From a virus: a DNA stretch of 64,000 bases. The position numbers and the translations under genes are program-made. Below, in pieces: positions 1 to 28,379 of this stretch (positions are counted from its first letter, which is position 1; each line of letters starts with the position of its first letter). The stretch lies in the IMG/VR virus record IMGVR_UViG_3300013118_000772. One strand, given 5' to 3'. The notes below the pieces were generated by a model. That model did not search any database. It was not told where the DNA came from and saw only the letters and a list, made by a program, of their open reading frames with translations.

Positions 1-15
1 AATAGATTAATCTAA

Positions 16-1044
16 TTATATATTGCCTAAATGTTCTATTGTTTTGAATAGAGTAGAATCAATAACTAACTGTTCTGTGACACCTTCTAATAGGTCTCGA
101 TCTGCTTCTCTAAATAAAATTGATAATTTACCTAGTTTTTCTATTGTAATTAACTTATTTTTAATAACATAATTATACATTTTAACCAATAAAAATCTAC
201 AATCACCACCTTCCATAATATATTGTTTAATACCTTTTCTGGAAGCGAGCCAATTTTTGTCCTTAAATATAGACTTTACTATGAACAGGAATGTTCCTTC
301 AAAAGTATCCTGATATATATTGTCCATAGTAACTGTGCCATTATTTGCAACTGATTGTAATCTCATTATAGCCTGTCTAATATCGCCGTCACAATTGGAA
401 GATATATAATTTAATCCTTCTTCATTATATTGAAATTCTTCTTTTTTGCAAATATATTCTAATCTATTTTTTATATCTTCGTCCTTTAAAGGCAGAAATT
501 TATAGTTTACACATCTAGATTTTAAAGCATTTATTATTTTTGATATTTCATTGCAACATAATATAAACCTACAATTGGAAGAATATTTTTCCATTATTCT
601 TCTTAAAGCATGTTGTCCATCTTTTGTCATTGAATCTATTTCATCAAGCAAAATAATCCTAAATTCTTTCATTATAGGCATAGATTTAGATATATGTTTT
701 ATTTTTTCTCTAACAGTATTTATACCTCGTTCATCAGATGCGTTTAGTTCTGTAAAATTTACTTCAAACGTTTTACCCATTAATTCCTTTGATATAGCAT
801 GGGCTGCAGTAGTCTTTCCAACTCCAGGTCGACCGAAGAATAATAAATGATCAAAAGATCTTTTTTTAATTATAGACTTTAAGTCTGTTATTATATGTTC
901 CTGACCACATATTTCATCTACTTTTTGTGGACGATATTTTTCTACTAAAATTTCCATTTTTTTCACCTTTATTTCTTTTGTAAAGTAAACAACCATAACA
1001 AGCCTTTTCACAATACTCATTTTCTTTAAATGGACATAATCCAT
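16..1044 (-). CDS. rfcS: Replication factor C small subunit (AAA+ clamp loader)
   Basis: Walker A GRPGVGKT, Walker B LLDEID, SRC sensor motif (LKSRC), N-terminal EKYRPQKVDEI box typical of RFC; real start probably the internal Met near 957 (MEILVEKYRP). Confidence 0.85.
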   Translation of the reverse strand: MDYVHLKKMSIVKRLVMVVYFTKEIKVKKMEILVEKYRPQKVDEICGQEHIITDLKSIIKKRSFDHLLFFGRPGVGKTTAAHAISKELMGKTFEVNFTELNASDERGINTVREKIKHISKSMPIMKEFRIILLDEIDSMTKDGQHALRRIMEKYSSNCRFILCCNEISKIINALKSRCVNYKFLPLKDEDIKNRLEYICKKEEFQYNEEGLNYISSNCDGDIRQAIMRLQSVANNGTVTMDNIYQDTFEGTFLFIVKSIFKDKNWLASRKGIKQYIMEGGDCRFLLVKMYNYVIKNKLITIEKLGKLSILFREADRDLLEGVTEQLVIDSTLFKTIEHLGNI

Positions 1045-1996
1045 TTTGAATTAAAGTACTTTGAACAGGAAACATATATTTATCTTTTCCATAAAGATAA
1101 TGAGGTTGTCTTTCATCTTTCATACAATGCCTAAATTTAGCCGGATTTAAATACTTTCTTAAAATTTCTACAGCTTCACCAAAAGTATAACAATTATCGC
1201 GCAATCCTATTATAACTATTCTTCTTTCATTCCAGCCAAGATTGCCTTTTGATAAAAGCATTTTTATGCAATCAGGAAGTAATGGAGATAAATCTGCAAA
1301 GTCTTCACTGTCCAGGTTTATACTTGATCTATCAAATTCTATATTATTCATTATATCAGTATCAAACTCTTCTATGTTCCAATATTTATGACCAAATCCA
1401 TTGTAAAAAAATCTTTGATATTTAGCTAATTCAAATATGGTTTTTTCACCTAAATTAATTATTTTTTCATCTAAAGGTATACAAAATCTTTTAGCAGTAG
1501 GTTTGTGATTATAAGTATTATCCACACGATGAATTCTAGCAATATCACCTTTAACTTGTTTATCCATTTTAATATCTAATTCTTCACAAAGCCAAGTCTG
1601 AGCATTAAATACACATTGTTTTTTATTGTTTATAAAAGAATTTGGTTCAGTAGCTATAATTATATCATAAGCGGAACCAGTACATCTTGGAAAATGTAAA
1701 ATTTTACGTTCCTTACACCAATTGTGAATTTTTATTAAATTTTCATAGGCATCTACATGATACGTGTAACCATTATCAACTATCTTTTTATCGAGATCAA
1801 AGTAAATCCGATCAATTATAGCTGTTTCATAAATTGGAAATGGATATGGTTCTCTAAATTTGGAAAAGTTATAAACATTAGTATATATGCTAGAAGTAGG
1901 AGAGTTGGCATTAACGAAGTTAATAAACTGTCTAGTATTTCGTACTACTGTTCTTTTTGGGTTACATATTTCACGAGGAAACCTTAAATTATACAT
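914..1996 (-). CDS. Archaeo-eukaryotic primase (AEP/PriS-like primase-polymerase) with C-terminal Cys cluster
   Basis: AEP motif I IYFDLD, motif III-like ARIHRVDNTYNHK, C-terminal CEKACYGC zinc-finger-like cluster; sits beside RFC and polB. Confidence 0.5.
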   Translation of the reverse strand: MYNLRFPREICNPKRTVVRNTRQFINFVNANSPTSSIYTNVYNFSKFREPYPFPIYETAIIDRIYFDLDKKIVDNGYTYHVDAYENLIKIHNWCKERKILHFPRCTGSAYDIIIATEPNSFINNKKQCVFNAQTWLCEELDIKMDKQVKGDIARIHRVDNTYNHKPTAKRFCIPLDEKIINLGEKTIFELAKYQRFFYNGFGHKYWNIEEFDTDIMNNIEFDRSSINLDSEDFADLSPLLPDCIKMLLSKGNLGWNERRIVIIGLRDNCYTFGEAVEILRKYLNPAKFRHCMKDERQPHYLYGKDKYMFPVQSTLIQNGLCPFKENEYCEKACYGCLLYKRNKGEKNGNFSRKISSTKSR

Positions 1997-2142
1997 AGTT
2001 TATTTACCTCTATTAGCTTTTTAGATCTATTTATAATATCTTTTTTAATAGCTTCTGCTAGTTCTTTATTTCTTCTAATTTTAATATCTTGCATAGCTTT
2101 TAAGCTAAAATAAACCCCTGTTGGACAAGCACATCTTATCAT

Positions 2143-2232
2143 TATTCACATCTTCCATATCCACAAATTATGCAACTTTTACATCCTTCTCGATGTACTA
2201 ATTGACATCCACAATCCGGGCATTTTTCCATT
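2143..2232 (-). CDS. Small Cys-rich zinc-ribbon peptide (29 aa)
   Basis: Manual translation MEKCPDCGCQLVHREGCKSCIICGYGRCE; below ORF-track size cutoff. Confidence 0.2.
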
Positions 2233-2240
2233 TTAATTTT

Positions 2241-3155
2241 CTATCTTAATACGACATTCATACAATTATCTTTATAATTGCACCATTTGCAGTTTTCAAA
2301 TGAAGCATTAGCTGGCCACATTCCTGTATCTAAACATATTTTAATTTTATTCCTAACTTTGTCAATATCATCTAATAGTTTTTTTACATCTTCTTTTTTT
2401 AATTCAACATGATAAACATAATTATCAAATGGAAAGTATATAGCTCCAAATTTTATTTCTCCTAAGTCAGGTCGATGGATTTCTACTATTGCTTTATACC
2501 ATAATAAATCCTCTTCATAATTTTTACATTTGCTTTTTGTTGGCTTTCCGGTTTTATTATCCACGACAACTAAATTTCCATTTCTAAAGTTTGGAAACTT
2601 ATCAATAGGTGGAGCAAATGAATCCCCTTCAAAACATTTATGTACTCTATCAGGTATTCCAATAAGTTTTGGATTTTCAGTTTTCATTTTCTTTTCGTTT
2701 ATCAAAGGAATAAAATATTCCATTCCAAAACCTGCTTTATGAACAGCTTTCCATCTTTCAATTTCGAATTTAACTACATTTTTTTTATAATCTGTATTAG
2801 GATGATATTTAAGTTTGCTAATGTTCAATAACTCTCCATTGGATTGAGGCTTAATTATATTAAACAAATTTTCTATAAAATCATGAACATCAATTCCAAT
2901 AGCAAAATATGGGTTAAAGGGTTGTTCAATATCATCTATATAGTTAAATTTAAATGCTAAAGGACAATGTTCGAAAAGGTATTTTTTACTTTTACTAATA
3001 TACATTAAATAGTCGTAATTTTTCATATAGTTCACCTTTTCTTTTATCAATTCTCTTTCCACAATATAAACATGAAACAGTCTTTGCTTGTTTAAACCTA
3101 AATGAATGTAGGTAAAATATTTCTTTACAATGATAACATTTAATTTCCTCTCCAA
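2241..3155 (-). CDS. Cas4-like PD-(D/E)XK nuclease with four-Cys cluster
   Basis: N-terminal Cys in YLFEHCP and C-terminal CKWCNYKDNC (C-x2-C-x5-C) as in Cas4/RecB-family exonucleases; acidic motifs IGIDVHD, GIPDRV; start may be internal Met (MKNYDYLMY). Confidence 0.5.
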   Translation of the reverse strand: MERKLNVIIVKKYFTYIHLGLNKQRLFHVYIVERELIKEKVNYMKNYDYLMYISKSKKYLFEHCPLAFKFNYIDDIEQPFNPYFAIGIDVHDFIENLFNIIKPQSNGELLNISKLKYHPNTDYKKNVVKFEIERWKAVHKAGFGMEYFIPLINEKKMKTENPKLIGIPDRVHKCFEGDSFAPPIDKFPNFRNGNLVVVDNKTGKPTKSKCKNYEEDLLWYKAIVEIHRPDLGEIKFGAIYFPFDNYVYHVELKKEDVKKLLDDIDKVRNKIKICLDTGMWPANASFENCKWCNYKDNCMNVVLR

Positions 3156-3169
3156 CCATTTTTATTTAT

Positions 3170-5716
3170 TCAATAATCAAAAAGACTTTGTTGTCCTTTT
3201 AAATCCAAAATCGACCAGCCCAATCCTTCAAAGATTCGCTCCATCTTACTAGTAGTTGCCTCTTTTACATGTTTGTCATAATCTAATATAGATTTTTCTG
3301 GGATATCATCATTGTTTCTAAAAGCTATTACATCTGTTTTTTGCATTCCTGGAACTCCCCTTACATATATTAATAAAAACTTTTCACCAACTTGAATATT
3401 TAGTTTAAGATTTTTATTTGAAAAAATAACTCCTCTGACTGTTGGTATATTTGTTTGATATTCATTTAATGGCTTTTTTAGTGGAGTAGGTAATCCTATT
3501 TCCTCAAAGCTATACTTATCGTTTCGTATATCTTTTTCCACATTTCTGACATATTTAACTATATTTTCTTTTGATTGTTCCTCTTCAATTAGCATTTTAA
3601 AAACACATTTCTGTGTTTTTCTTGCTATTATGGATTGATCAGATCTTACAACTTCAAATCCTACTATCTGCATTTTGCTAATTTCTTTACCTTTATAATA
3701 GGATAAGAGTCCAGCATATCTTTTCTTAGCTTGACCAAAAAATATTCTTTTATATGCTTTTTCAAAATTAATTTTGAAGTAATGCTGTTTACAGTTAAAT
3801 AGATTAGCAAAATCATCATAACTATCTTGTAAAAATTCAGCTATTTTATTTCCTTCTTCTAGTACTGGAATAAGCTCATTTTCCTGATATTTGGCTTTTA
3901 AAAAATTTGAATCTGTGTCCCCGTATAATGTATCATAATTATTTTTACTAGCTATATATCTGTTCCATAACACTGAATTCCTTCCAACAAAAGTAGTCGC
4001 TGCTGCTATATCTGGCATATATAACCTAAATCCATAATACCCTAACGTCCCATAAAATGAATTCATTAAGATTTTAAATGCAAATTGTTTAAATTCTAAT
4101 CTAATATATTCTGGACTATTATAATCATACTTATCTCTTTCTGCTTGTATATTTATTCTTTCATCGAATAAATATTCTAACATTCCTGGTAGGAATCCTT
4201 TTTTATCTTGACTAAAATAAACATTTTTATTTCTTACATGTTTTGATATAGTGGCAGGGAGCTCTATTTTAAAATCTTGTTTATGTAAATCCCAATTTGC
4301 TTTGAAAAATTCATCAAAAGCTGAACTAATTTTATCGTACCATCTATTATCAAATTTCTCCCCGTCCTTTGAAGAAATCATAAAGGTTGAATGATCTAAA
4401 TAAGGAATTTTTAAATGAACTGAATTTTCATTTCTCTTATCTTGCAAGGTTTCTGGACTAGCATTTAATGAAGAAATTATTTTAGGATACAATGAGGTAT
4501 AATCAAATACTACCGAGTTTTTATGTATTCCTTTTTTTGGTTTTAAAACAAATGCTCCGGCAAAACTTTGTTTTCTATGATGTTTTTTAGTAGGATGAAC
4601 AAATTTACCTTTTGTAAAGTGAAGCATAAATGAATCTACTACTCTTGAGTTATTAAACACATCATTAAAAGAACATTTACTTAATCTTCTTGTTTCATCA
4701 AATGTCTGAACAATCTTCTTTTTCTTTTCTATCCTATAAACTAACATTGTATCTTTTTTATTATAGGCAATGAATTTATCTAAATCATCCTGCCAAAGGC
4801 TATGTAAGCTTCCTGCATATTTTATTTTTTTTTCACCTAGTTCATGACTTGCGACATTATCTAATCTATAACTATCTAATTCTCCATATTGCATTTTTCT
4901 ATAAGCTTCTAGCATATCAAAAATAATTCTTCCTTTAACTAATACATCTCCATACTTATTTGTTAAAGCTACATTCATAGGTGATAACCTTCTATAATCC
5001 ATTCCTATACTATTCATTCTGTTAATAATATAGGCCATATCAAAATCTTTAACGTTCCACCCACTAAACATATCACAATCTGTTTTCTGGACGTATTTTA
5101 TAAATGATATTAACATATCTCGTTCATTATCAAAAAATAAAGTGAAATCTTTATACTTATAATCTTCTTCATTAACAGTTTTAAAACTAACTGTACCATT
5201 ATTAACAGTTTTCCTTTGAAGGTCTTGTCTCCAGACAAAAGTAATACATTTCTTATCCATATTATTAAAACATGTAATAGCATTTATTGGATCACTTGCA
5301 TGTTCTATATCTGGAAATCTATTATTGGAAGCAACTTCAATATCAAGATAGGTAACAGAGAGAGGGACTCCTTTTAAATCATTATATTTATCTATTATAT
5401 ATCTGGTAGGATATAAAACATCTGCCTCAAAACTTTCATCTACTTTTTCCCTTAATTCTTTAACATAGGCAGGAATTTTTGTAATAACTTTTACTACATT
5501 CCTTCCTTTTATATCTTTATATTTTACTTCTTCTATTTTTAATACTCTTTTATCCTTTCTTAATTTTTCAACTTCGTTTTTTAAAATATAAAAATATGGC
5601 TTAAAATCATTATCTCTTATTATTCTTCTTTCACCTTTTTCGTTTCTACCAAATATTACTATGGTAGGAACTTCATTAGTTACTTCATACTCTACTTGTA
5701 TAGGAGTTACAGCAAT
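3170..5716 (-). CDS. polB: Family B DNA polymerase with 3-5 exonuclease domain
   Basis: Exo I LDIEV (in the upstream extension), Exo II NVKDFDMAY, Exo III YNKKD, motif A DYTSLYPKII, motif B KILMNSFYG, motif C YGDTDS. The ORF track starts at Met 5260, but the frame continues 152 codons upstream with clear archaeal PolB N-terminal similarity (FKPYFYIL). Proposed start is ATT at 5714-5716 behind SD AGGTGA. Confidence 0.85.
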   Translation of the reverse strand: MAVTPIQVEYEVTNEVPTIVIFGRNEKGERRIIRDNDFKPYFYILKNEVEKLRKDKRVLKIEEVKYKDIKGRNVVKVITKIPAYVKELREKVDESFEADVLYPTRYIIDKYNDLKGVPLSVTYLDIEVASNNRFPDIEHASDPINAITCFNNMDKKCITFVWRQDLQRKTVNNGTVSFKTVNEEDYKYKDFTLFFDNERDMLISFIKYVQKTDCDMFSGWNVKDFDMAYIINRMNSIGMDYRRLSPMNVALTNKYGDVLVKGRIIFDMLEAYRKMQYGELDSYRLDNVASHELGEKKIKYAGSLHSLWQDDLDKFIAYNKKDTMLVYRIEKKKKIVQTFDETRRLSKCSFNDVFNNSRVVDSFMLHFTKGKFVHPTKKHHRKQSFAGAFVLKPKKGIHKNSVVFDYTSLYPKIISSLNASPETLQDKRNENSVHLKIPYLDHSTFMISSKDGEKFDNRWYDKISSAFDEFFKANWDLHKQDFKIELPATISKHVRNKNVYFSQDKKGFLPGMLEYLFDERINIQAERDKYDYNSPEYIRLEFKQFAFKILMNSFYGTLGYYGFRLYMPDIAAATTFVGRNSVLWNRYIASKNNYDTLYGDTDSNFLKAKYQENELIPVLEEGNKIAEFLQDSYDDFANLFNCKQHYFKINFEKAYKRIFFGQAKKRYAGLLSYYKGKEISKMQIVGFEVVRSDQSIIARKTQKCVFKMLIEEEQSKENIVKYVRNVEKDIRNDKYSFEEIGLPTPLKKPLNEYQTNIPTVRGVIFSNKNLKLNIQVGEKFLLIYVRGVPGMQKTDVIAFRNNDDIPEKSILDYDKHVKEATTSKMERIFEGLGWSILDLKGQQSLFDY

Positions 5717-5844: not shown

Positions 5845-7005
5845 CTAATAATCTAATAATCCTGCTGTATTGACTTTACCATTATCTTTTGAAAAATGAG
5901 ATTGAAATTTAACACATGCTTTATCAAATCCCTTATCTAAACTATAATCTATAAATTCAATAGCTAATTGTACTTCTTTATCAAAAAATTTACGTATGAA
6001 GTTTCTGTAAACTTCTTTATCATCTTTAAGACTATTACAAAGTTTAGTATATTGAATCAATTGATAAAGATTATGCAATGATATTATACCACCAGGTGCA
6101 CTACCTTGTGAGGATAACATATTTATACTATCAATTTGACTACATACAGGACACATGCAAGGTATATTTTTTATATTTGCTTTATTTGCCTGACCAAAGA
6201 ATAATTCCATTTTACCAAAATATAAAGGAAGAAAATATTTTCTTTGCATTGATCCCTGAGCCCAAGCACTGCTATCTGCAGTAATATTATCTACATATCT
6301 TGCTAAGTAAGCTAAAACAGGAATTGTTCTACTTCCACTGACAGCTAAAAAATGAAAGTTATTACTATGACCTTTATTGTACATATACATACCTTGGTAG
6401 GCTAATAACATTGGCTTTGCCTCTGGTTTACATCCAAACGACCAACCTGTTTTTGTCATATTAGGATATTTTGAAGCCATATTATACCAGTCGTCCATTT
6501 TTCTTTTATTAAATCCATAACCTTGAAAAATATTATATAGTTTTAAAGGTCTTTCAGGATTAGATTCTAAATATTTAGTATATAAATCTTCTGCTATTTT
6601 AAAATTTTCATTGCTAATATTCATAGACTTTTTCCATGCTTTTTCATCCGCATCAAAAGGAGGATAATCTAAAGGAAAACCAATATCACAATTTTCAACT
6701 TGCCAATCAAAAACTTCTTTTGGGTCTATTTCTATATCCTGACCTTTCCATTCTTTTAGGCTCATATTTTGAAATCCGCCACTATCCCCCATAAAAATAA
6801 TATCATCTTTTATTTTTAATAACTTTCGTATATTTTCTTTTTTCATACCATAATGAGCGGAAATTAAAATATAAGGATATTTAAATAAAGATTCTTTCTT
6901 CCACCATGTTAGGTCTTTTTCACCATCTTTAAAATGACCAGAAATTCGTTTATTTGTACTACATGCGCCAGGAACTTCTGCTGGAACGAAATTAAAGTTA
7001 CCCAT
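5845..7005 (-). CDS. dpdA: tRNA-guanine transglycosylase family enzyme, DpdA-like candidate DNA 7-deazaguanine transglycosylase
   Basis: TGT catalytic motif MGDSGGFQNMSL and zinc site CMCPVCSQ...H; 386 aa with no PUA domain; embedded in a preQ0 synthesis operon with no queF/queA or tRNA context. Confidence 0.7.
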   Translation of the reverse strand: MGNFNFVPAEVPGACSTNKRISGHFKDGEKDLTWWKKESLFKYPYILISAHYGMKKENIRKLLKIKDDIIFMGDSGGFQNMSLKEWKGQDIEIDPKEVFDWQVENCDIGFPLDYPPFDADEKAWKKSMNISNENFKIAEDLYTKYLESNPERPLKLYNIFQGYGFNKRKMDDWYNMASKYPNMTKTGWSFGCKPEAKPMLLAYQGMYMYNKGHSNNFHFLAVSGSRTIPVLAYLARYVDNITADSSAWAQGSMQRKYFLPLYFGKMELFFGQANKANIKNIPCMCPVCSQIDSINMLSSQGSAPGGIISLHNLYQLIQYTKLCNSLKDDKEVYRNFIRKFFDKEVQLAIEFIDYSLDKGFDKACVKFQSHFSKDNGKVNTAGLLDY

Positions 7006-7006: not shown

Positions 7007-8353
7007 CTATTTCAACTCCTTTCTTATTGCATAAAGTTCATTTTCAAAAAATTCAAATATATCATCAGGAAGTATTATTACATGGTCGTCGTCTATTTGT
7101 ATGTCAAATATCTCTTGATGCCATACAGGGTCAATCCTTCCTAATGTTTGGTACTTATTTGAATATACATAAGCAAGTGTTTCTGCTTCCTTTTTTCCAT
7201 CTTCTGAATTAAAAATAGCATCTAAGTCATCTGTATTAAGTATTTCCCTATGACTACTTAATCCAATTCTTTCTGGGTCTTCTTTTAATCCTTCTAGCAT
7301 AAAAGCTATTCTTTGGCATTTGTCACATTCATCACAAGGAAGCCACATTCCGTTTTTACTTTTCTTTGGAGTAAAACAACTCATTTGATATTGATATAGA
7401 TTAAATATATCATTTCGTATGAATATCTTTTGAATTGCTGATTCTGATAAATTATACACTAATGAAAATACTTGCATATTAGTACCGATTTCTTTAAGAT
7501 AATGACTTATCTTCCTTTCAAAATGGGTTGATTGATCAAAATTATGACCAAGTATTTCATGACCTTTAAATTCAAATGGAACAGTACAATCAAATTCATT
7601 TCCAAAAACTAGATTTCTAATTCCATTAATATTGCAATAAGCCAATTCAATAAAAGCTAGAATAGGTAAATATAAATTATTCTTACCCCATTTAGGTGCA
7701 ATGAAATCAAAAATTTCAAATATATTGGTTTGTATTTTATCTGACCAGGGAATTGCTTTATACATCATTTCACTTGGATCAAATCGATTATCATCAATAA
7801 ATAGAGGATAAGTTCTATAATTCAACTTTTGTAAAGTAGTAAAAGTCATTGTACTTTCTTTACCTCCACTCATGCTAATAGCATATTTATCTTCTTTATT
7901 TAGCTTATATTTAATGGGATCTAATAAAGGAAATTTTTCATATCCTTCCAAGTTAATATCTTTAAATTCTTTGAATTTATTTGTGAATGTAGTTCTCATT
8001 TGGAAATCTAGATCCAAAAGAAATGAATGATCTAATGAATTTAATTTAAATAGATGTCCTTTACTTAATGATTCCCAATTAGTTAAACATTCATTTTTAG
8101 TAAATAAACCTATATTTAATAATTGAACGTGAACTGACATAGCTAATAATTTTAGACTAATCTTACTATTTTCTAAATTACAATATTTTGGAAAGTTAAT
8201 ATAAATTGGTATAATAATAGAATCATTGTTGTACTGTAACATATATTTACAAGTAAATATATTTTTCATAATTTTTAAATCAAATAATGTTACTCTATTA
8301 AATTTAAAATTAGGATTTTCTTCTATATGTTTAATTAATTCTTTTTTATTCAT
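7007..8353 (-). CDS. QueC-family PP-loop ATPase paralog with about 150-aa N-terminal domain of unknown function
   Basis: Variant PP-loop ISMSGGKEST and QueC-like C-terminal zinc cluster C-x13-CDECDKC; start ATG overlaps queC stop (ATGA). Confidence 0.6.
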   Translation of the reverse strand: MNKKELIKHIEENPNFKFNRVTLFDLKIMKNIFTCKYMLQYNNDSIIIPIYINFPKYCNLENSKISLKLLAMSVHVQLLNIGLFTKNECLTNWESLSKGHLFKLNSLDHSFLLDLDFQMRTTFTNKFKEFKDINLEGYEKFPLLDPIKYKLNKEDKYAISMSGGKESTMTFTTLQKLNYRTYPLFIDDNRFDPSEMMYKAIPWSDKIQTNIFEIFDFIAPKWGKNNLYLPILAFIELAYCNINGIRNLVFGNEFDCTVPFEFKGHEILGHNFDQSTHFERKISHYLKEIGTNMQVFSLVYNLSESAIQKIFIRNDIFNLYQYQMSCFTPKKSKNGMWLPCDECDKCQRIAFMLEGLKEDPERIGLSSHREILNTDDLDAIFNSEDGKKEAETLAYVYSNKYQTLGRIDPVWHQEIFDIQIDDDHVIILPDDIFEFFENELYAIRKELK

Positions 8354-9078
8354 TTAGTTAACCTCTTTGCCCTTCTAGCTAATGCAGCTAAAAAATCTTC
8401 TCTTTCATCTTTTCTTGACATTAATTTTTTATTTGCTTCCTCAGTTAGATTTTCAAATGGATCTTTTTCAAATATTTCATGATAGCTTATATTATTTAAC
8501 TCCAAAGCTACTGCTTTTCTTATACATGCTCTACAAACACCACATTCATGTATTTTGCCACTATAACAACTTCTAGCAAAATGTTTTAGATGTGAAACAA
8601 TGCCACCATTAGCTATATATTGCTTAACTATTTGTGCTTTAGTCAAGTGTTTAAATGGCATCTTAATACTAAAAGGGTAATTTTTTTCAAATACTTTATG
8701 TTTATCTATGGCAAAATAATTTAACATTCCTTCTACTTGTGCTTTGAAAATAAAATCCTTATCTTTTGTGCTATCTCCAGCAGTAAAACCCATATAAATT
8801 TCATTTCCATAATTAGCTGCAATTAAAGTCATAATAGAATTTCTATGAGGTATTATTTTATTTTCCATTTCCCATTCTACTAAAGGTAGTTTAAGTATTC
8901 TAACTTTATCTTTTATTTCTTCTGGCATAGCACTTAAATTTTCAAGTTCAATTTTATTGTCTTCTGTTTCTAAATCAAAAAAGATAATTTCATCATATAT
9001 ATCATTAAACAATAAACACCAGCTGTCTAGTCCACCAGAAAATAATAATATCTTTTTAACTTTTAAACTGTCCTGCAT
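8350..9078 (-). CDS. queC: 7-cyano-7-deazaguanine synthase
   Basis: PP-loop LFSGGLDS, zinc motif CYSGKIHECGVCRAC (C-x7-C-x2-C-x2-C), 242 aa. Confidence 0.85.
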   Translation of the reverse strand: MQDSLKVKKILLFSGGLDSWCLLFNDIYDEIIFFDLETEDNKIELENLSAMPEEIKDKVRILKLPLVEWEMENKIIPHRNSIMTLIAANYGNEIYMGFTAGDSTKDKDFIFKAQVEGMLNYFAIDKHKVFEKNYPFSIKMPFKHLTKAQIVKQYIANGGIVSHLKHFARSCYSGKIHECGVCRACIRKAVALELNNISYHEIFEKDPFENLTEEANKKLMSRKDEREDFLAALARRAKRLTK

Positions 9079-9431
9079 TTTATCTTTCCTCCTGAAAGTT
9101 CTCTTATTCCAAAATTTATTTCTTTATCATTATCTATATATTCGTCTATATGATATATTTCACAAAATGCTTTTTTGAATTGAACTACATAAGTATTATG
9201 CCACATCTTTAAAGGATTGTAAATTATCTTTATTTTGTCTGGATTCATTCCAAATCTTTTCAACGTTTTAAGAGTAATTTTTTTATCTTTATAATTTCTA
9301 GCTGTTATAATTATTTTAATATCTTCTATATTTACCTTTGGATTTAACCTATTAAATCTCTTTTTTAACCAATGATTTTTAAATTTAGATATAATTATAG
9401 TCCCATCCAAATCATAAGCTATTTTTTTCAT
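9063..9431 (-). CDS. Small HAD-superfamily phosphatase (possible nucleotidase)
   Basis: HAD motif I AYDLDGTI (DxDGT) at N-terminus; 122 aa. Confidence 0.5.
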   Translation of the reverse strand: MKKIAYDLDGTIIISKFKNHWLKKRFNRLNPKVNIEDIKIIITARNYKDKKITLKTLKRFGMNPDKIKIIYNPLKMWHNTYVVQFKKAFCEIYHIDEYIDNDKEINFGIRELSGGKIKCRTV

Positions 9432-9805
9432 CTTAATCCTTTTTCTAATAAAAAATTTATTATATCATCCAAACCTTCGAAAATTATACTTGAATAATTT
9501 ATTAACCATGGACTTCTCCATTCATCATGAACAAAAACATAAACTTTCTTTCTCAAGCTTTTGGCATAAAACATTTCCATTGCTGTACCCCAACCAGGTT
9601 TTGTTCCGTCAACAATTAAAATATTGGATTGTCTAATATGTTTTCTATCTTTATTAACAATAGCTCTATGTTTACCTTCTTGATATTTATAATCCATTGG
9701 ATTTATTATTTTAAATTTTTTTCTAAGTTTAATTTTAACTCTTCTTCTCCAACTTTCCCTGAAGGGATCACCATCAAGAGTTCCACTGAGATATATTGTT
9801 TTCAT
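9428..9805 (-). CDS. Nucleoside 2-deoxyribosyltransferase / Rcl(DNPH1)-like protein
   Basis: N-terminal IYLSGTL and central LIVDGTKPGWGTAMEMFYA resemble NDT/Rcl family signatures (YLAGP...D-G-T-x-x-E-x-G-x-A); 125 aa. Confidence 0.4.
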   Translation of the reverse strand: MKTIYLSGTLDGDPFRESWRRRVKIKLRKKFKIINPMDYKYQEGKHRAIVNKDRKHIRQSNILIVDGTKPGWGTAMEMFYAKSLRKKVYVFVHDEWRSPWLINYSSIIFEGLDDIINFLLEKGLR

Positions 9806-9874: not shown

Positions 9875-10474
9875 TTATCTTCCATTATGAACCCCATTAG
9901 CAAATCTTAAAAATTCCGCTCTTGTTTCTAAATTGTCTTTAAACGCTCCTCTTAGTTCAATTGTGGTCATATATCCCTCTTTTTTAACTCCTCTTATTGA
10001 TTTGCATAAATGTTTTGCTTTTAAAACCAATGCCATGCCATACGGTTGATTATTTTTTCCATTACTCAACTCTTGCCATAAGTAATCTAAAATATCTTTT
10101 GCTAATCGTTCTTGTATTTGTAATCTAGCTGAAAAATAATCTACTACTCTTGCAACTTTACTCAACCCCAATAATTTTCCATTAGAATTTGGTAAATAAG
10201 CAAAATAATAATTCCCTAAAAACCCAATAATATGATGCTCACAAAAGCTATTAAAATTTCCTTCGTCCATAATCATTTGATCATATGTTACACCATCTTT
10301 TCCATTTCTGAATGTAGTTACTTTTGGTAGTTGTTTTGGATCATATCCTCTAAATATTTCTTTCCACATATTAACTACTCTTTTAGGTGTATCTTTTAAA
10401 CCTTCACGATTTGGGTCTTCGCCTATAAACTCTAACATGCTTCTAACAATCCACCTCATATTATCTTCATCCAT
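9875..10474 (-). CDS. folE: GTP cyclohydrolase I
   Basis: FCEHHIIGFLG and LLGLSKVARVVDYFSARLQIQERL match FolE core; 199 aa. Confidence 0.8.
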   Translation of the reverse strand: MDEDNMRWIVRSMLEFIGEDPNREGLKDTPKRVVNMWKEIFRGYDPKQLPKVTTFRNGKDGVTYDQMIMDEGNFNSFCEHHIIGFLGNYYFAYLPNSNGKLLGLSKVARVVDYFSARLQIQERLAKDILDYLWQELSNGKNNQPYGMALVLKAKHLCKSIRGVKKEGYMTTIELRGAFKDNLETRAEFLRFANGVHNGR

Positions 10475-11092
10475 TTATTTTCCCCTCCGTTTAACTCCCC
10501 ATACATCTACATGTAATCTTGGGCTATATCTTATTTTATGTTTGATACAAAAATCCCAAACTTTTCTTGATATTTTTTTATTTTTTTCTTTATCAGATGT
10601 AGTCAATGGCATTAATAATGATGCTTTTTTTGCCATTTCTTTATTAACTTTATCCAGATCAGATGCTATTTTAATATCATAAAAATATCCAAGCCAAAAA
10701 TTATTATAACTCATTAATTGCATCACTCGATTTAATGTATTTGCATCTTTTGGAGATACGCTAATATAATCAAAATAAGATAATTTATCCCTAGTTAATA
10801 AATCTCCATTAGTTTCTAAATGATGACTAAAACTAGGGAGCTGGCTAATTATTTGTGTCATTTCTATAAACTGTAAAAGTCCCTCACCTCCAGTCCAAAC
10901 TACTGTATCTGTCCCTGATTTTTTTATAGTATTGATAATTTTTTTAATGTTAATTTCATCTCCTTCTTTATGATATTTTGTATCACACCAAGAACATGAT
11001 CTGTTACAGCCGCTTAACCGAATAAAAATAGCTGGAATTCCTACAAATTTTCCTTCGCCTTGTAATGAGACAAACATTTCGTTGATTTTCAT
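10475..11092 (-). CDS. queE: 7-carboxy-7-deazaguanine synthase (radical SAM)
   Basis: N-terminal MFVSLQGEG and radical SAM cluster CNRSCSWCDT; 205 aa. Confidence 0.85.
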   Translation of the reverse strand: MKINEMFVSLQGEGKFVGIPAIFIRLSGCNRSCSWCDTKYHKEGDEINIKKIINTIKKSGTDTVVWTGGEGLLQFIEMTQIISQLPSFSHHLETNGDLLTRDKLSYFDYISVSPKDANTLNRVMQLMSYNNFWLGYFYDIKIASDLDKVNKEMAKKASLLMPLTTSDKEKNKKISRKVWDFCIKHKIRYSPRLHVDVWGVKRRGK

Positions 11093-11328
11093 TTCTTTTT
11101 ACCTTTATCCGGGTTAGTCCTATCCCTGGTTATAGTAGTTATGTGCTTTATAATTATCTTCCTTTTGTCAGTCATAATAACAATATTTAAATGATTAAAG
11201 TTCATGCCTCTTATTTTACCTTTAATAGATATTACTTCTTTCCCTTCAAGATATTTAACTTCACATTCCTTACCAATGAATCTTTTTATCTCATCTAAAT
11301 ACGGGTTAACTTCTTTTCCCTTCATCAT
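11089..11328 (-). CDS. Hypothetical small basic protein, possibly Sm-like fold
   Basis: 79 aa; GKIRGMNFNHLNIVIMTD loosely resembles an Sm1 motif; lies between queE and queD. Confidence 0.25.
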   Translation of the reverse strand: MMKGKEVNPYLDEIKRFIGKECEVKYLEGKEVISIKGKIRGMNFNHLNIVIMTDKRKIIIKHITTITRDRTNPDKGKKK

Positions 11329-11770
11329 TTATATTCACCTCTGCATAACAAGTTGGAGTTTCATATAGTCTTATTCTTGAAAGTTTTAAATGCCTCGGTA
11401 GATTTATATCTAAAACATCAAATATATAATTAACCATATTTTCAGCAGTAACATTTTCTTTTAATCTTAATACTTTCTGATCAATTTTTTCTTCCAAATA
11501 TTTAGCAATATCTTCGTCTACGATAGATAAACTATTTATAATTAATGCATGATCAAATTTATCTACTACATATTCTTTAACTACTTCCTTAAAATCTCCA
11601 AAATCTATTACCATTCCATCATCTGATTCAAAAAATTTAAATTTATCTTGTATCAATCCCATTACTTCTACTTCTAATAAATAACTATGTCCATGAATTG
11701 ACCTACATTTTCCTTTATGGTTAACTAATCTATGTGCACATTCCCATCTAAATATTTTACATATTTTCAT
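11306..11770 (-). CDS. queD: 6-carboxy-5,6,7,8-tetrahydropterin synthase
   Basis: CAHRLVNHKGKCRSIHGHSY (Cx-HGH zinc motif); ORF-track start at 11869 is probably an over-extension; likely start MKICKIFRWECAHR. Confidence 0.8.
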   Translation of the reverse strand: MKICKIFRWECAHRLVNHKGKCRSIHGHSYLLEVEVMGLIQDKFKFFESDDGMVIDFGDFKEVVKEYVVDKFDHALIINSLSIVDEDIAKYLEEKIDQKVLRLKENVTAENMVNYIFDVLDINLPRHLKLSRIRLYETPTCYAEVNINDEGKRS

Positions 11771-11975
11771 TTTTATCCCTCTTATAATGTTCTGAAAAAA
11801 TTGCTTTATGATGAGCTTTTGAATGTTTATTGCATTCATTACATTGATATTTCCAATGATAATTATCAATACAATCTTGTCTTAATGTAAGAAATGTTTT
11901 TTTATTTTGACAATCATCACATCTGCCAAATAATCTAATTCCTAATAAATGTAATGTAACCATTTTATTCATCAA
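11757..11975 (-). CDS. Zinc-finger protein (72 aa)
   Basis: CDDCQNKK...CNECNKH Cys pairs; overlaps only the doubtful 5' extension of queD. Confidence 0.3.
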   Translation of the reverse strand: MMNKMVTLHLLGIRLFGRCDDCQNKKTFLTLRQDCIDNYHWKYQCNECNKHSKAHHKAIFSEHYKRDKNENM

Positions 11976-15009: not shown

Positions 15010-16260
15010 CTAAAATGGATCCTCATCCATTATAACTTCTTTTTTCTTAGGAACTTCTCGAACTACTTCTTTTACTTCTGGAGTTTTTTGTACGGGTGTT
15101 TCTTCTTTTGGTTTTTCTTTATTATCATCCATTAATAATTCCTTTTCTGTCATCTTTTTTACTTCAACCCTTGGAAATTTCCAATCGGGATAGGCAAATA
15201 AGCCGCTGGTGAATAATATCAATCTAATATCTCCATCATCACCAGGAGGGGGTAACCAGGGGCGGCCTATTGCCATCACTTTACTATTTTGGGCAAAATC
15301 AATAGACTTTTCTAATTCTTTATCTGCTAAGCATAAAACATTAGCATCATCTACTGAGTCAGATGTGCTACATAAATGAACTTTTATTCTATTTTTATTA
15401 TCAGGCATAAAATTCTGATAAACACATAGCGCATCAGGTATAACTATTATGTTATTAAATTTATCAGGCATTGGACTAGAATCAGGATTTGATTTCTTCT
15501 TTTCAATCCAATTATTAATTTCTTCCCATGTAGTCATATTGTCTTTCAAATAATTAGTAATTAGACCAGTTATACCTAATTTTTTAATTCCTTCTTCCAT
15601 ATATTCATTTGTCGTGGGTAAGAACTCTGTTCTATTTGAATATAGTTCATATATATTAGAATTATCTTCACTATTATTCATAGCTTTAAATGTAGTTATT
15701 TGACCTTTCTTTAAATCGCCACCACACGCATCTCCATCTAACCTTAAAGTAAATCCCTTTACTGATTCTTCATTTACAGGACTACAAACACCATATACAT
15801 TTTGAGTCATGCTTCTATCAGAAGTAGGCATATCTTGTCCTGCCATTTTACTTGGCTGACCATTAATTTTTAATTTAGGCCATAGAGGTATAATTTCACC
15901 TTGTTCTTCTCTTACTATTCCATTATCAAAAACATCTTGAAGAATTGAATTATCACCAGTTTGTTCTGATCTATCCTTCGCTTTATTATATTTATCTAAT
16001 TGATTATTTCTAATATTAAATAATGGATCTCTTGGCTCATCATTTCCAATAATCACTCCAAAAAAAGAAACAGCTCTACTTAAAAATTGACGCTTATAAT
16101 CTATTTTTAGTCTTAATTTTGATTTAGCATTAATATCTTCTTCTTTTTGATTAGGAAATAAACTTTTCATTTCCTGCTTAACTTCCTCAAATTTCTTTTC
16201 CAATTCATTGACCGGCACATTTAATTTCACTGACCATTCTTTTAGAAATTTATTATCCAT
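15010..16260 (-). CDS. Hypothetical protein (416 aa), acidic C-terminal tail
   Basis: Long ORF co-directional and abutting neighbors; no recognizable motif. Confidence 0.4.
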   Translation of the reverse strand: MDNKFLKEWSVKLNVPVNELEKKFEEVKQEMKSLFPNQKEEDINAKSKLRLKIDYKRQFLSRAVSFFGVIIGNDEPRDPLFNIRNNQLDKYNKAKDRSEQTGDNSILQDVFDNGIVREEQGEIIPLWPKLKINGQPSKMAGQDMPTSDRSMTQNVYGVCSPVNEESVKGFTLRLDGDACGGDLKKGQITTFKAMNNSEDNSNIYELYSNRTEFLPTTNEYMEEGIKKLGITGLITNYLKDNMTTWEEINNWIEKKKSNPDSSPMPDKFNNIIVIPDALCVYQNFMPDNKNRIKVHLCSTSDSVDDANVLCLADKELEKSIDFAQNSKVMAIGRPWLPPPGDDGDIRLILFTSGLFAYPDWKFPRVEVKKMTEKELLMDDNKEKPKEETPVQKTPEVKEVVREVPKKKEVIMDEDPF

Positions 16261-16441
16261 TTTTAATTTCCTCCACTTTTTCTGGCTTTATTAATGTCTC
16301 TTTTTTATCTATTTTACCTTTAAATTCAAGAACAATATCCTCTTGTGCTTTTATTCCATATTTATTTCGAATATCAGATAGAATAGTAACTTGATTAATG
16401 TCATTTACTTTTGCTCTGAATTCTGTTTCTTTTAATTTCAT
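16253..16441 (-). CDS. Hypothetical small protein (62 aa), first gene of minus-strand block
   Basis: ORF with stop-start overlap to downstream gene; SD-like GGAGGA upstream on minus strand. Confidence 0.3.
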   Translation of the reverse strand: MKLKETEFRAKVNDINQVTILSDIRNKYGIKAQEDIVLEFKGKIDKKETLIKPEKVEEIKNG

Positions 16442-16544
16442 TTACATTCCTCCTAATTTAGAACTTTTAGAATTACTTTTTGCCATAAAATAAATTAAAT
16501 TAATGTTATATTTAAATTTATTGTATTCAGGTATATACCTCAAC

Positions 16545-16568
16545 TAAATCATTAAATCACTAAATCAT
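16545..16568. repeat. Tandem 8-bp repeat TAAATCAT/TAAATCAC/TAAATCAT in divergent promoter region
   Basis: Direct reading of the 16441-16718 intergenic spacer. Confidence 0.6.
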
Positions 16569-16718
16569 TAAAAAAACAATAAATTTAAATAGTTGATTAA
16601 TTTTAAATAAAATTAGGATAAAAAATGAGAAATAAGAAATCAAATCTAGAAAATCACAATAATAATATTAATAATAATCTATTTTATAATAGGTCAAAAA
16701 TGACAAGGAGGACAGTAA

Positions 16719-17756
16719 ATGCAATTAAAATTAATATTTGGTAAAACAGGAGTAGGAAAGACACATTATGTAATTGAATGGTCTAATATTAATAATAAAA
16801 ATCTAAGAATAGTTAATCCTTATGATTTTAACAAAAAAAGTAATCCATTTACAATTTTATTAAACAGAGATATTTCCGGAAAAGAGATAATATATCTTTT
16901 TGATGATATAGATTGCATGAGTAAAAAAATACAAAATGATTTAATTAAACTAGTAGAACTGGATAAAGGTAAAGACATAGTAATTTTTCTAACTGCAACC
17001 AATCCAAAAAAAATAAAGAAAGAACTACAAAGATTATGTAGCATAATGACAATTAATCCTAAATCTAAAGATGAGATTAAAGAAATTTTAAGAAAGAAAT
17101 TTTCAAATAATATGGGAAAATCATCAGAAGTATTTGAAGAAATAATAGAATTTTCATCATCTAAATGTCATAGTGATTTAAGAAAAGCGTTTCAATTAAC
17201 TATGTATCAAAAATCAACAGCATACGATGCAAATAAATTGGAACATGACAATTTAGAAGCTATCAAATTAATTTTATATGAAGAAGATAGATATTTAGTA
17301 TATAATTATATAAGGCAGCTTTCTATTAGTGGTTTATATGTATGGCTTTATGAGACATTTTCAAATAGTCAAAATGAAAAAATGATATATATGTTAAAAG
17401 AAATGGACAAAGTTTTATATAATACCAAAAAAGATTATATATATTCATTTTTAGCTTTTTCATTGACAGTTCAAAAAGAAAAGATGATAATAAAACTTCC
17501 TAATAAAAATAAATTAAATGAAATAGAATCAAGCATAATTAATAAAATAAAAAACGAATATAAATGTTCGAAGAAAGAATGTTTGATGTACCTTAACTTA
17601 ATAAAGACATTAAAAGAAAATAAAAAATTCATGGAACCTTTATCAAAAAGACTTTCATTGAATAAGAAAGAAAGAAACTTTCTAGGATTGGAAGAAAAAA
17701 TTATAATTAAAGAAAGAAGAAAGATTGTAAAAACTAATACCTTATTAAACTATTAG
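16719..17756 (+). CDS. AAA+ ATPase, clamp-loader/RFC-like or initiator-like
   Basis: Walker A GKTGVGKT, Walker B YLFDDID; no SRC motif; 345 aa. Confidence 0.5.
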   Translation: MQLKLIFGKTGVGKTHYVIEWSNINNKNLRIVNPYDFNKKSNPFTILLNRDISGKEIIYLFDDIDCMSKKIQNDLIKLVELDKGKDIVIFLTATNPKKIKKELQRLCSIMTINPKSKDEIKEILRKKFSNNMGKSSEVFEEIIEFSSSKCHSDLRKAFQLTMYQKSTAYDANKLEHDNLEAIKLILYEEDRYLVYNYIRQLSISGLYVWLYETFSNSQNEKMIYMLKEMDKVLYNTKKDYIYSFLAFSLTVQKEKMIIKLPNKNKLNEIESSIINKIKNEYKCSKKECLMYLNLIKTLKENKKFMEPLSKRLSLNKKERNFLGLEEKIIIKERRKIVKTNTLLNY

Positions 17757-17767
17757 GTGAAAGAAAA

Positions 17768-19201
17768 ATGGATTGTGTAAAATATCTGGAACAATTAGAT
17801 AATGAGAGTTCAACAAATAAAAAAATAGAAATTTTAATTAATGGACTTAAAAATAGTAGTGATTTAGAGGAATATTTAAGATTAACATTTGGAGAAAGAA
17901 TATTTAATGTTGCTTCCAAAACTATTTCTAATTCGTTAGATATAAAAAATAAAACTAGTCATTCTGATATAGGATCTAAAATTGAATGGTGGCTAGAAAA
18001 TAAATCTGGTCAATCTAACTTGTTAATATTTTCAGGAATACAAAAAAAGAAAGAATATAAAGAATATAAAGAATTTAAAAATTTACTTAGTGAGTTAGAA
18101 GATATAAGGGGCTTAGATGCTCAGAATTTAATAAGGAACTTCTTCTTGAATTGTAAATCTAAAGATGCAAAATGGTATTCAAGATGTTTAGTTAAAGATC
18201 TTTCATGTGGAATTTTGACAAAAACAATAAATAAAGCTTTTAAAACACTCAACTTAAAAGAAATTGAATCATTTAACGTAGCTTTATATGAAAAGATAGA
18301 CGGATATGATATTAATATAGATTATTCCATCCAAAAAGATAGACTAATTTCAAAATTAAATGAGTCAGTTACAATGCCTATATATGCTGAACCTAAATAT
18401 GATGGAGTTCGATTAATAGTTAGAAACTGTATATTTGGAAGAAATAGAAAAACAGAGGCAATAACAAGAAACGGTAAAAAAATCGAAACTGTATATTTCT
18501 TACAAAGAGAATTCGATAGAGTTTTTGAAGGAATTAAATTAGAACTTGATGGAGAATTAATGGCAAAGGACTTTCAAACATTAATGACTCAGGTACATAG
18601 AAAAAATGATTTAAGTATGACTATGCCAAGACAATATATAGTTTTTGATATTAGGACATATAAGGGTAATGATATAACTTATTTAAGATATGAAGAAAGA
18701 AGAAAGATTTTAGAAGATATATTTAGCAATATTCAATCTGATATAATTTTATTGGTCAAAAATAAAAAACTAGAAAATGCAGAAGATGTATGTGATATTT
18801 ATGAAAAGTCAGTAAAAGCAAAATATGAAGGTATTATGCTAAAGTTTAATGTTCCTTATGAAAAGGAAGATAAACGAAATAACGGAATTAAATTAAAACC
18901 AATTAAAACAGCTGATTTGGAAGTATTTGATTTTGTAAAAGGAGAAAAAGGTAGACATTCTGGAAAAATATCTAGTCTTATGGTAATTGATAAATCAACA
19001 ACAGTCATTAGCAAAGTAGGAAGTGGATTAACGGATGATATAATTGAAAAAATAACTAATGATCCTGATAAATATAAACATACTATTGTAGAAATATGCT
19101 ATGATTCAATTACAAAACCAAATGAAGAAGGTAAAAAAAGTCTAAGATTTCCTAGATTTATATCATTTAGATTTGATAAAAATGAGGCAGATAGCCTTTA
19201 A
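17768..19201 (+). CDS. lig: ATP-dependent DNA ligase
   Basis: Adenylation motif I EPKYDGVR (KxDGxR); 477 aa with a long C-terminal region after the adenylation domain. Confidence 0.8.
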   Translation: MDCVKYLEQLDNESSTNKKIEILINGLKNSSDLEEYLRLTFGERIFNVASKTISNSLDIKNKTSHSDIGSKIEWWLENKSGQSNLLIFSGIQKKKEYKEYKEFKNLLSELEDIRGLDAQNLIRNFFLNCKSKDAKWYSRCLVKDLSCGILTKTINKAFKTLNLKEIESFNVALYEKIDGYDINIDYSIQKDRLISKLNESVTMPIYAEPKYDGVRLIVRNCIFGRNRKTEAITRNGKKIETVYFLQREFDRVFEGIKLELDGELMAKDFQTLMTQVHRKNDLSMTMPRQYIVFDIRTYKGNDITYLRYEERRKILEDIFSNIQSDIILLVKNKKLENAEDVCDIYEKSVKAKYEGIMLKFNVPYEKEDKRNNGIKLKPIKTADLEVFDFVKGEKGRHSGKISSLMVIDKSTTVISKVGSGLTDDIIEKITNDPDKYKHTIVEICYDSITKPNEEGKKSLRFPRFISFRFDKNEADSL

Positions 19202-27974: not shown

Positions 27975-28379
27975 ATGTCAAATAAACCAACTTTTCAAGA
28001 ATTAATGGGTAAAAGAATACTGAAAAATAAATGGAACATCTGCATAACACGCATTAAAATTCTATATCCTAAATTTAATCCACTTGATATTTCTATTCTT
28101 TTAATATGTCATGAAAGAATGTTAAATAACGAAAATAACTTTTTTTATTCTACAAAGCTAATGTGGGAACTTAATATGGCTCCGACACATTATAAGGATA
28201 TGAAAGATAGTTTAAATAAATTATATAAATATGGTTTAATAGAAGAAAAAATTATATCAAAAAGAAGATATCCTTGTGTAGCATATTGGATAAATAAAAA
28301 AGGTAGTATTATTATATCTGAAATAATAAATAACTGTAAGGTGGTAAAGAATGTTAAAGAAAATAATAAAACAAATTAA
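27975..28379 (+). CDS. Winged-helix transcriptional regulator (MarR/PadR-like)
   Basis: wHTH-like core LDISILLICHERMLNN...STKLMWELNMAPTHYKDMKDSLNKLYKYGLIEEK; ORF-track start 27948 likely an extension. Confidence 0.4.
   Translation: MSNKPTFQELMGKRILKNKWNICITRIKILYPKFNPLDISILLICHERMLNNENNFFYSTKLMWELNMAPTHYKDMKDSLNKLYKYGLIEEKIISKRRYPCVAYWINKKGSIIISEIINNCKVVKNVKENNKTN

Follow-up and report, generated by a model that had tools for sequence, protein, structure and literature searches.

Introduction

Eight 7-deazaguanine derivatives have been described in viral DNA, where each tailoring enzyme described gives one distinct modified base and where QueF, ArcS, and Gat-QueC co-vary with the specificity of the DNA transglycosylase DpdA (PMC10516641). 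In the reactions of the PP-loop enzymes QueC and Cap9, 7-carboxy-7-deazaguanine is adenylated on its carboxylate and passed to ammonia or to a protein amino terminus (bioRxiv 10.1101/2025.04.06.647259). The QueC signature motifs YxQxHxxE, VPxRN, and YPDC line the substrate pocket, and Tyr35, Arg99, and Tyr131 are essential in the E. coli enzyme (PMC13082051). CmoY, an asparagine-synthetase homolog of a phage, forms an ATP-dependent glycine amide on 5-carboxymethylcytosine in double-stranded DNA (PMC12783734). MurL requires ATP and Mg2+, AMP is released, and its substrate was proposed to be adenylated on the α-carboxylate (PMC5808125, PMC8788868); two reviews describe MurL as an ATP-dependent epimerase without known conserved domains. 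Here we analyzed a 64,000-nucleotide (nt) stretch of viral DNA, IMG/VR record IMGVR_UViG_3300013118_000772 (hereafter the window), with respect to the 448-residue protein encoded by its open reading frame (ORF) 7007–8353 on the minus strand, which we call X. X is predicted to be an intact PP-loop ATP pyrophosphatase with a QueC-type four-cysteine (Cys4) site, it aligns over nearly its full length with MurL, and it lies between a QueC-like gene and a dpdA-like gene. No such protein is mentioned in surveys of the QueC superfamily and of the 7-deazaguanine genes of viruses, the term MurL having been looked for in the QueC survey only. X is thus an undescribed component of a known kind of system and not a new kind of system.

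Results

Motifs and Predicted Fold of X

The ORF of X is intact over 448 codons in a region of 27% GC. Its start codon and the stop codon of the QueC-like ORF upstream (8350–9078) share a 4-nt overlap (ATGA), and its TAG stop codon is separated by a 1-nt spacer from the ATG of a downstream ORF of the tRNA-guanine transglycosylase (TGT) superfamily (5845–7005), which is taken here as the viral DpdA. This indicates that the QueC-like, X, and DpdA genes are translationally coupled. A preliminary description of the locus had recorded the overlap with the QueC-like gene and the adjacency to dpdA, together with a PP-loop within SMSGGKEST and a C-x13-C-x2-C-x2-C cluster, and both the arrangement and the two motifs were confirmed (Table 1). 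In an alignment of 71 family members, on which all counts below are based, the PP-loop residues G164 and S167 are each conserved in 70 sequences and K165 in 64, while E253, S297, and S325 are nearly invariant alongside them. The Asp-to-Glu substitution at position 166, which the same description had singled out as a variant feature, is indeed present. It is not peculiar to X, since Glu occupies this position in 40 of the 71 sequences and Asp in 30, and on this alignment it appears as a family trait rather than a mark of decay. The metal of the Cys4 site is presumably zinc, by likeness to QueC. All of these motifs are retained in homologues of 22–54% identity, which, together with the confident full-length fold described below, argues that X is not a chance ORF.

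A structural model of X was constructed with AlphaFold2 by using the 71-sequence alignment. It gave a mean predicted local distance difference test (pLDDT) value of 92.3 and a predicted template-modeling (pTM) score of 0.93, with no segment below 50, residues 1–150 included. This model replaced one built from three sequences (pLDDT 57.9), for which Foldseek gave only weak PP-loop matches. A disordered N-terminal domain and a degraded queC duplicate had both been envisaged in the preliminary description as grounds for abandoning a catalytic role; the domain is ordered in the model, and the catalytic and metal residues are conserved across the 71 sequences. Structure comparison of the model gave QueC and Cap9 as the nearest structures to the central domain. 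Profile–profile alignment of the whole X family against a QueC alignment agreed with this (probability 96.7%, E = 4e-10), the whole of E. coli QueC, PP-loop through zinc motif, being matched by residues 150–363 of X. Within the viral clade, identity is highest in this core domain (35–66%) and lowest in the N-terminal domain (23–40%). The copy of the PDB that was searched contained no MurL-family structure; the family profile matched only other PP-loop enzymes in it, with QueC sequences at E of about 1. In BFVD, which covers the UniProt viral proteins, there was no full-length structural equivalent of X, and the only matches were phage QueCs aligned over the core domain with template-modeling (TM) scores of 0.36 or less. 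No DNA-binding domain was found by Pfam scan or structure comparison, and the X proteins are acidic (isoelectric point, pI, 5.1–6.5) without a consistently basic domain.

Relationship of X to MurL and QueC

A Pfam scan of X gave no match, and the only curated match in NCBIfam was to the MurL model NF041275, which was weak and confined to the core region (E = 2e-7, 29.9 bits; the equivalog cut-off of 700 bits was not reached). The same model matches 34 of the 71 family representatives, the best at 3e-137. A full-length relationship was detected when the six closest viral sequences were compared with 21 MurL-clade sequences by hhalign (probability 99.5%, E = 5.8e-23, 386 columns), in which residues 37–444 of X were aligned with residues 22–445 of the 447 of MurL. 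This indicates that the N-terminal 150 residues and the last 85 residues of X are standard MurL-family architecture, so that the former are not the unknown fusion domain for which they had been taken. Lys86 of the N-terminal domain is aligned with the conserved lysine of the MurL motif SYYK, and the segment FNSEDG..E389 with KPFECVG..E386. The Pfam copy used did not report MurL_N (PF26299) for X; this domain appeared only in the precomputed annotation of a paralogue in the related locus L005. The alignments and the model show the MurL family itself to have a PP-loop core of the QueC fold, in which the Cys4 site is invariant; this explains the release of AMP by MurL.

MurL and X therefore share an N-terminal domain, a PP-loop/Cys4 core, and a C-terminal helical domain, and conversion of ATP to AMP is presumed for both (PMC5808125). 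They differ in the residues that define the MurL clade: its invariant GGGKDS, G-H-x-P (NGHVP), INHQYSKS, and the Cys of FECVG are represented in X by SGGKES, KNNLYLP, NFDQS, and FNSEDG, respectively. They also differ in genomic context, as MurL is paired with murD2 or peptidoglycan genes, whereas the neighbors of X are QueC-like, DpdA, FolE, QueE, and QueD genes in all loci. The substrate of X almost certainly differs from that of MurL, which epimerizes a terminal glutamate from L to D at the expense of ATP.

With respect to QueC, neither the Pfam (PF06508) nor the NCBIfam (TIGR00364) model matched X at E up to 0.1. QueC (PF06508, PDB 3BL5) has the PP-loop and the C-xn-C-x2-C-x2-C motif in the same order and occurs in the same biosynthetic neighborhood, but its cysteine spacer is 8 residues instead of the 13 of X, and X carries approximately 150 additional N-terminal and 85 additional C-terminal residues. 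The profile alignment further showed that X lacks the motif YxQxHxxE as well as the Arg in VPxRN and the Tyr in YPDC. The earlier assignment of X to the QueC family hence holds for the central-domain fold and the Cys4 site, and fails for family membership. X as a second QueC or a QueC fusion was rejected on the missing model match and the absent substrate motifs. Gat-QueC possesses an N-terminal class II glutamine amidotransferase (GATase) domain with a Cys after Met1, whereas X begins with MNKKEL, gives no GATase match, and has a MurL-like N-terminal domain; the earlier statement that X is not a class II amidotransferase fusion was correct. Since X fails the defining tests of both MurL and QueC, it should be filed as neither.

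The wider superfamily also includes cellular members that are not MurL. Some of them (L037/L038 P0026, P0012, and others) adjoin DUF1611/DgcN-type genes and genes for pyridoxal-phosphate-dependent (PALP) enzymes, or are fused to creatininase/MftE-like amidohydrolase domains, which suggests amino-acid or peptide carboxylate chemistry in uncharacterized pathways.

Distribution and Genomic Context

A word-indexed search of 5.8 billion proteins retrieved only X and two relatives, none of which had a name or a Pfam domain. When 1.84 billion cluster representatives were searched exhaustively with a profile, 194 sequences were obtained at E ≤ 1e-3 and only 7 at E ≤ 1e-30, which indicates that the family is real but rare. 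No match to X was obtained by tblastn against 50,697 phage records, and no confirmed relative of the viral X clade was present in the GTDB one-genome-per-species contigs; three loci with X were found in IMG/VR. Contigs encoding relatives of 32–54% identity comprise approximately 25 loci from several lineages, and all have the order QueC-like, X, DpdA. A gene for a 122-residue protein usually lies upstream, FolE, QueE, and QueD genes are nearby, and the cluster stands beside genes for a family B polymerase, replication factor C (RFC), a primase-like protein, and a PD-(D/E)XK nuclease. More distant X-like proteins (22–27% identity) adjoin QueC genes. In L013 an X-like gene is paired with a QueC in which the canonical motifs are retained. 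For one distant X-like gene, the flanking genes are ArcS-like (DUF5591) on one side and DpdA-like, of a second subfamily, on the other. Every context examined, over relatives of 22–54% identity, was thus a viral 7-deazaguanine module.

Some relatives carry a second MurL-like paralogue, here termed X2, between X and DpdA (L021 6457–7611, L005 1783–2934, L024, and L013 2732–3958), so that three PP-loop enzymes are encoded in tandem. X2 of L021 is nearer to true MurL, with GGGKDS, INHQFDKTS, and DCFG motifs and an NF041275 match at E = 1.5e-19.

Among 21 IMG/VR contigs that encode the divergent QueC-like protein together with FolE, QueD, and QueE, X was present in 3 and absent in 18. The QueC-like subgroup is the only QueC-type gene in at least 18 IMG/VR viral contigs besides the window that also have FolE, QueD, and QueE. 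In the 18 contigs without X, the X–DpdA pair is replaced by a family of approximately 280–370 residues (roughly 340) with FIDSGAFS and VDSTSW motifs. Its members follow FolE or QueC (L043–L057, L012 2378–3226, L013 4629–5513, and L063 2169–3101). They are remotely similar to the DpdA of the window (hhalign probability 70%, E = 4e-5) and, on their sequences, probably represent another DpdA subfamily. This distribution indicates that X is an optional addition to an otherwise complete pathway and co-varies with the transglycosylase type. An obligatory pairing of X with the QueC-like gene was rejected because those 18 contigs carry that gene without X. A tie of X to a single DpdA subfamily was likewise rejected, as distant X-like genes are paired with a second DpdA-like family.

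Neighboring Genes and the Rest of the Window

Table 1. Gene X, its domains and motifs, and adjoining genes of the 7-deazaguanine operon in the window.
Feature	Coordinates	Strand	Evidence and remarks
Gene X, MurL-superfamily PP-loop ATP pyrophosphatase	7007..8353	-	448 residues, begins MNKKEL; no Pfam match; NCBIfam MurL E = 2e-7; hhalign to MurL clade 99.5%; AlphaFold2 pLDDT 92.3
N-terminal domain of X, residues 1–149; helix, three-stranded meander, three helices; MurL-type	7907..8353	-	AlphaFold2 pLDDT 81–97 except loop 91–100; MurL-clade alignment from residue 37
Central QueC-fold catalytic domain of X, residues 150–363	7265..7906	-	
C-terminal helical domain of X, residues 364–448, also in MurL	7007..7264	-	hhalign to residue 444; AlphaFold2 pLDDT 83–98
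PP-loop SGGKES, pyrophosphate-binding motif, within SMSGGKEST	7853..7870	-	Residues 162–167
Cys326-x13-Cys340-x2-Cys343-x2-Cys346 cluster, presumed zinc site as in QueC	7316..7378	-	Cys invariant in 71/71; aligned with QueC C188/C197/C200/C203
TGT-superfamily transglycosylase, taken as viral DpdA	5845..7005	-	386 residues; PF01702 E = 8e-7; archaeal TgtA model E = 2e-10; DSGGFQ at 74; CMCPVC zinc motif at 283
Divergent QueC-like PP-loop enzyme	8350..9078	-	242 residues; PF06508 E = 3e-16, residues 55–193 only; TIGR00364 44 bits, cut-off 150
Protein with N-terminal DLDGT motif, HAD-phosphatase-like by eye	9063..9431	-	122 residues; in most X loci, immediately upstream of the QueC-like gene
Nucleoside 2-deoxyribosyltransferase-family protein	9428..9805	-	125 residues; PF05014 E = 2e-9; also in L008 and L021; PDB sequence search empty
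GTP cyclohydrolase I (FolE)	9875..10474	-	PF01227 E = 2e-50
Radical-SAM QueE-type enzyme (7-carboxy-7-deazaguanine synthase)	10475..11092	-	PF04055 E = 1e-9; position between FolE and QueD as in related loci; QueE assignment inferred
QueD/6-pyruvoyl-tetrahydropterin synthase family	11306..11869	-	PF01242 E = 4e-30; likely start 11770, giving 154 residues, as in the L002 gene call

The FolE, QueE, QueD, and QueC-like genes lie within 5 kb, with the TGT-family gene 1 nt downstream of X, which is the gene content of a 7-deazaguanine DNA-modification module (Table 1). The QueC-like gene had been taken for a canonical queC, an assignment that cannot be kept in view of its TIGR00364 score of 44 bits against a cut-off of 150 and of the absence of YxQxHxxE and YPDC. 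Compared with E. coli QueC, the protein and its orthologues keep SGGxDS (SGGLDS here), IPHRN, and C-x7-C-x2-C-x2-C with a Tyr, whereas GTxDNxxE replaces YxQxHxxE and a DTTKDKD insertion replaces YPDC. On these sequence features it belongs to a divergent QueC-like subgroup, for which a nitrile, an amide, or a conjugate are the candidate products; as the gene is found without X in many viruses, it presumably works alone. The target of the transglycosylase is presumably DNA rather than transfer RNA (tRNA), given the viral context (PMC10516641). The DpdA of the window gave no Pfam match to DUF6610/DpdA4 and is hence not close to it, and, of the cultured relatives, the nearest are TGT-like genes from jumbo phages (approximately 25% identity). 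The DLDGT protein had no significant Pfam or PDB sequence match; together with the nucleoside 2-deoxyribosyltransferase-family protein, it hints that the pathway has a branch at the level of nucleosides or nucleotides. No QueF, ArcS, Gat-QueC, QueF-like, or amidotransferase gene was found among the ORFs of the window that were scanned.

Outside this operon, the replication module of the window appears archaeal or eukaryotic in type, with an RFC-like clamp loader, a primase-like protein, a PD-(D/E)XK nuclease, a family B polymerase, and an ATP-dependent DNA ligase (1–5260, 16719–19201, and 41232–42626). An XPB/Rad25-type helicase occurs only among the gene calls of the related contig L002 and was not located in the window. 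A HerA/FtsK-type (DUF87) ATPase is present, and no terminase and no tRNA genes were detected in the window. The virus is possibly non-tailed or archaeal, and, judged by its replication genes, the lineage probably infects archaea. At approximately 16260–16720, the coding strand switches from minus for all genes on the left to plus for all genes on the right, and the GC skew changes sign; the 16–18 kb block has a GC content of 0.226, among the lowest in the window. This position is a point of divergent transcription and possibly a replication origin. A 1620-residue protein (45482–50344, plus strand) with a CBM96 match and a disaggregatase-repeat match below the cut-off, and a 751-residue protein (28977–31232, plus strand) with laminin-G/ConA-like and carboxypeptidase-regulatory-like domains, are likely host-recognition or surface-degrading proteins. 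A 168-residue class I S-adenosylmethionine (SAM)-dependent methyltransferase (28351–28857, plus strand; Methyltransf_23, E = 1e-14) is encoded far from the deazaguanine operon.

Discussion

The reading that we tentatively favor is that X is an adenylate-forming tailoring enzyme, which would activate a carboxyl or carboxamide on the C7 side chain of a deazaguanine before insertion by DpdA and so give a base of the C7 amide or amidine type. By analogy with the chemistry of MurL, QueC/Cap9, and CmoY, the oxygen of the carboxyl or carboxamide would be adenylated and a nitrogen nucleophile would accept the activated group. In such a scheme, X would bind a small-molecule intermediate carrying a C7 carboxyl or carboxamide, for which the candidates are 7-carboxy-7-deazaguanine, 7-amido-7-deazaguanine, and a conjugate with an amine or an amino acid, which the divergent QueC-like enzyme would make. 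The PP-loop would adenylate the oxygen of this group, converting ATP to an AMP–substrate adduct with release of pyrophosphate. A nitrogen nucleophile would then attack the activated carbon to give a C7 amide- or amidine-type base, unlike preQ0 (7-cyano-7-deazaguanine), and the co-varying DpdA subfamily would exchange this base for guanine in the viral DNA. If so, the product of X is probably a hitherto undescribed base derivative. Substrate, nucleophile, product, and the timing before insertion are all proposed here from the analogy, whereas the fold, family, intact motifs, place in the operon, and optional distribution of X are shown by the data above. The conserved place of X in 7-deazaguanine clusters argues for an ATP-dependent derivatization step in the pathway, and the acidic pI together with the lack of a basic domain weakly favors a free base over DNA as the substrate. 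Also in favor of the reading is that no other tailoring gene was found among the scanned ORFs of the window. The oxygen that adenylating enzymes require, be it of a carboxyl, an amide, or a carbonyl, is lacking in a nitrile. On this PP-loop chemistry preQ0 itself is an unlikely substrate of X, so that of the earlier proposal of an ATP-dependent derivatization of preQ0, the derivatization is retained and the substrate is not.

Several points weigh against this reading. The chemistry ascribed to X is drawn wholly from family analogy and context. Likeness to the QueC fold runs through the MurL superfamily as a whole, peptide-acting enzymes among them, and is by itself no sign of deazaguanine binding. 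Of the QueC pocket residues, only D133 has an identical counterpart (D273); R99 is aligned with Leu232 and Y131 with Asn271, and YxQxHxxE is lacking. The X loci all come from related uncultured viruses, so that their synteny may partly reflect shared ancestry rather than functional constraint. Finally, a position immediately upstream of DpdA in two DpdA subfamilies also fits a step at the DNA level that is coupled to DpdA.

Among the alternatives, the best placed, although unlikely, is that X performs QueC chemistry or half of it (7-carboxy- to 7-amido-, or 7-amido- to 7-cyano-7-deazaguanine) for a neighbor whose active site is partly lost, the final base then being the known dPreQ0 or dADG. 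X has the QueC fold and Cys4 site, the two genes are translationally coupled, and the neighbor lacks YxQxHxxE and YPDC, whose Tyr residues are needed by E. coli QueC to make preQ0 (PMC13082051). However, X has none of the QueC substrate motifs, the X-like gene of L013 accompanies a QueC with canonical motifs, and the divergent QueC-like protein occurs with FolE, QueD, and QueE in the 18 viral contigs without X, where it evidently suffices.

Action of X on DNA after the exchange is also rather unlikely. Here DpdA would insert 7-carboxy-7-deazaguanine, and X would adenylate the DNA-borne carboxylate and ligate an amine to it in the manner of CmoY, a phage precedent for an ATP-dependent amide ligase on a carboxylated base in double-stranded DNA (PMC12783734). 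The corresponding nucleoside, dCDG, exists in viral DNA (PMC10516641), and, with both DpdA subfamilies, X is the gene immediately upstream. By contrast, the closest relatives of X always co-encode a QueC-like enzyme that would consume 7-carboxy-7-deazaguanine, and neither a DNA-binding domain nor a conserved basic domain was seen in these acidic proteins. A similarly low likelihood applies to a scheme in which the QueC-like enzyme, in the style of Cap9, makes no nitrile but ligates 7-carboxy-7-deazaguanine to the amino group of an amino acid, X adenylates the α-carboxylate of the latter, as MurL does with an N-acylated glutamate, to epimerize, amidate, or extend it, X2, where present, adds a step, and the co-varying DpdA inserts the amino-acid-bearing base. 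If true, this would be a peptide-like C7 hypermodification, unseen in any nucleic acid.

It is more doubtful still that X is an ATP-dependent synthase of the archaeosine base (G+), which would adenylate the amide oxygen of 7-amido-7-deazaguanine and use ammonia to form the formamidine, as a non-homologous stand-in for ArcS, Gat-QueC, or a QueF-like enzyme. Such chemistry parallels that of GMP synthase and of the second half-reaction of QueC, as is generally known for PP-loop enzymes, and none of the three enzymes that X would replace was found among the scanned ORFs of the window. The nucleoside dG+ is a known viral DNA base (PMC10516641). Against this reading, a glutaminase partner is absent and the distant X-like gene beside an ArcS-like gene would be redundant.

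A true MurL-type epimerase acting on a host cell-wall peptide precursor, unrelated to the deazaguanine genes, is very improbable in spite of the full-length MurL homology and the weak NCBIfam match, as X scores 29.9 bits against the 700-bit cut-off, has replaced the clade invariants, has no MurD2 or cell-wall gene nearby, and resides in a 7-deazaguanine module in every context examined. That X is a decaying or non-catalytic duplicate, as the Glu of its PP-loop and the lack of a curated model above threshold might suggest, can hardly be credited when Glu is the family majority, the catalytic and metal-binding residues are kept over 22–54% identity, the predicted fold is confident, and the ORF is intact in a genome of 27% GC.

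The favored role of X as an adenylate-forming tailoring enzyme can be compared with three described systems. The "deazaguanylation" enzymes Cap9 of type IV CBASS (the cyclic-oligonucleotide-based antiphage signaling system) and QatC of the Qat system are a precedent for a QueC fold that passes adenylated 7-carboxy-7-deazaguanine to an amine other than ammonia beside a TGT-like protein. X is unlike them in that it has no PADLOC match and no CD-NTase or QatABD partners, belongs to a viral and not a defense context, and is much larger. CmoY resembles the role proposed for X in that it uses ATP to adenylate the carboxyl "handle" of a modified base, with an amide as the product; it differs in belonging to the asparagine synthetase family, in modifying another base, and in having DNA as its substrate, the predicted substrate of X being a free base. 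The viral tailoring enzymes Gat-QueC, ArcS2, QueF, DpdL, DpdM, and DpdN share the genomic logic of X, being optional, located beside dpdA and the preQ0 genes, and co-varying with the DpdA subfamily (PMC10516641), although the sequence of X is unrelated to any of them. Recurring in these operons of an uncultured viral lineage, X is the most direct pointer to a ninth derivative or to a new route to a known one, and the QueC-type core of the MurL family places cell-wall epimerization, the biosynthesis of queuosine, and antiviral deazaguanylation within a single structural superfamily.

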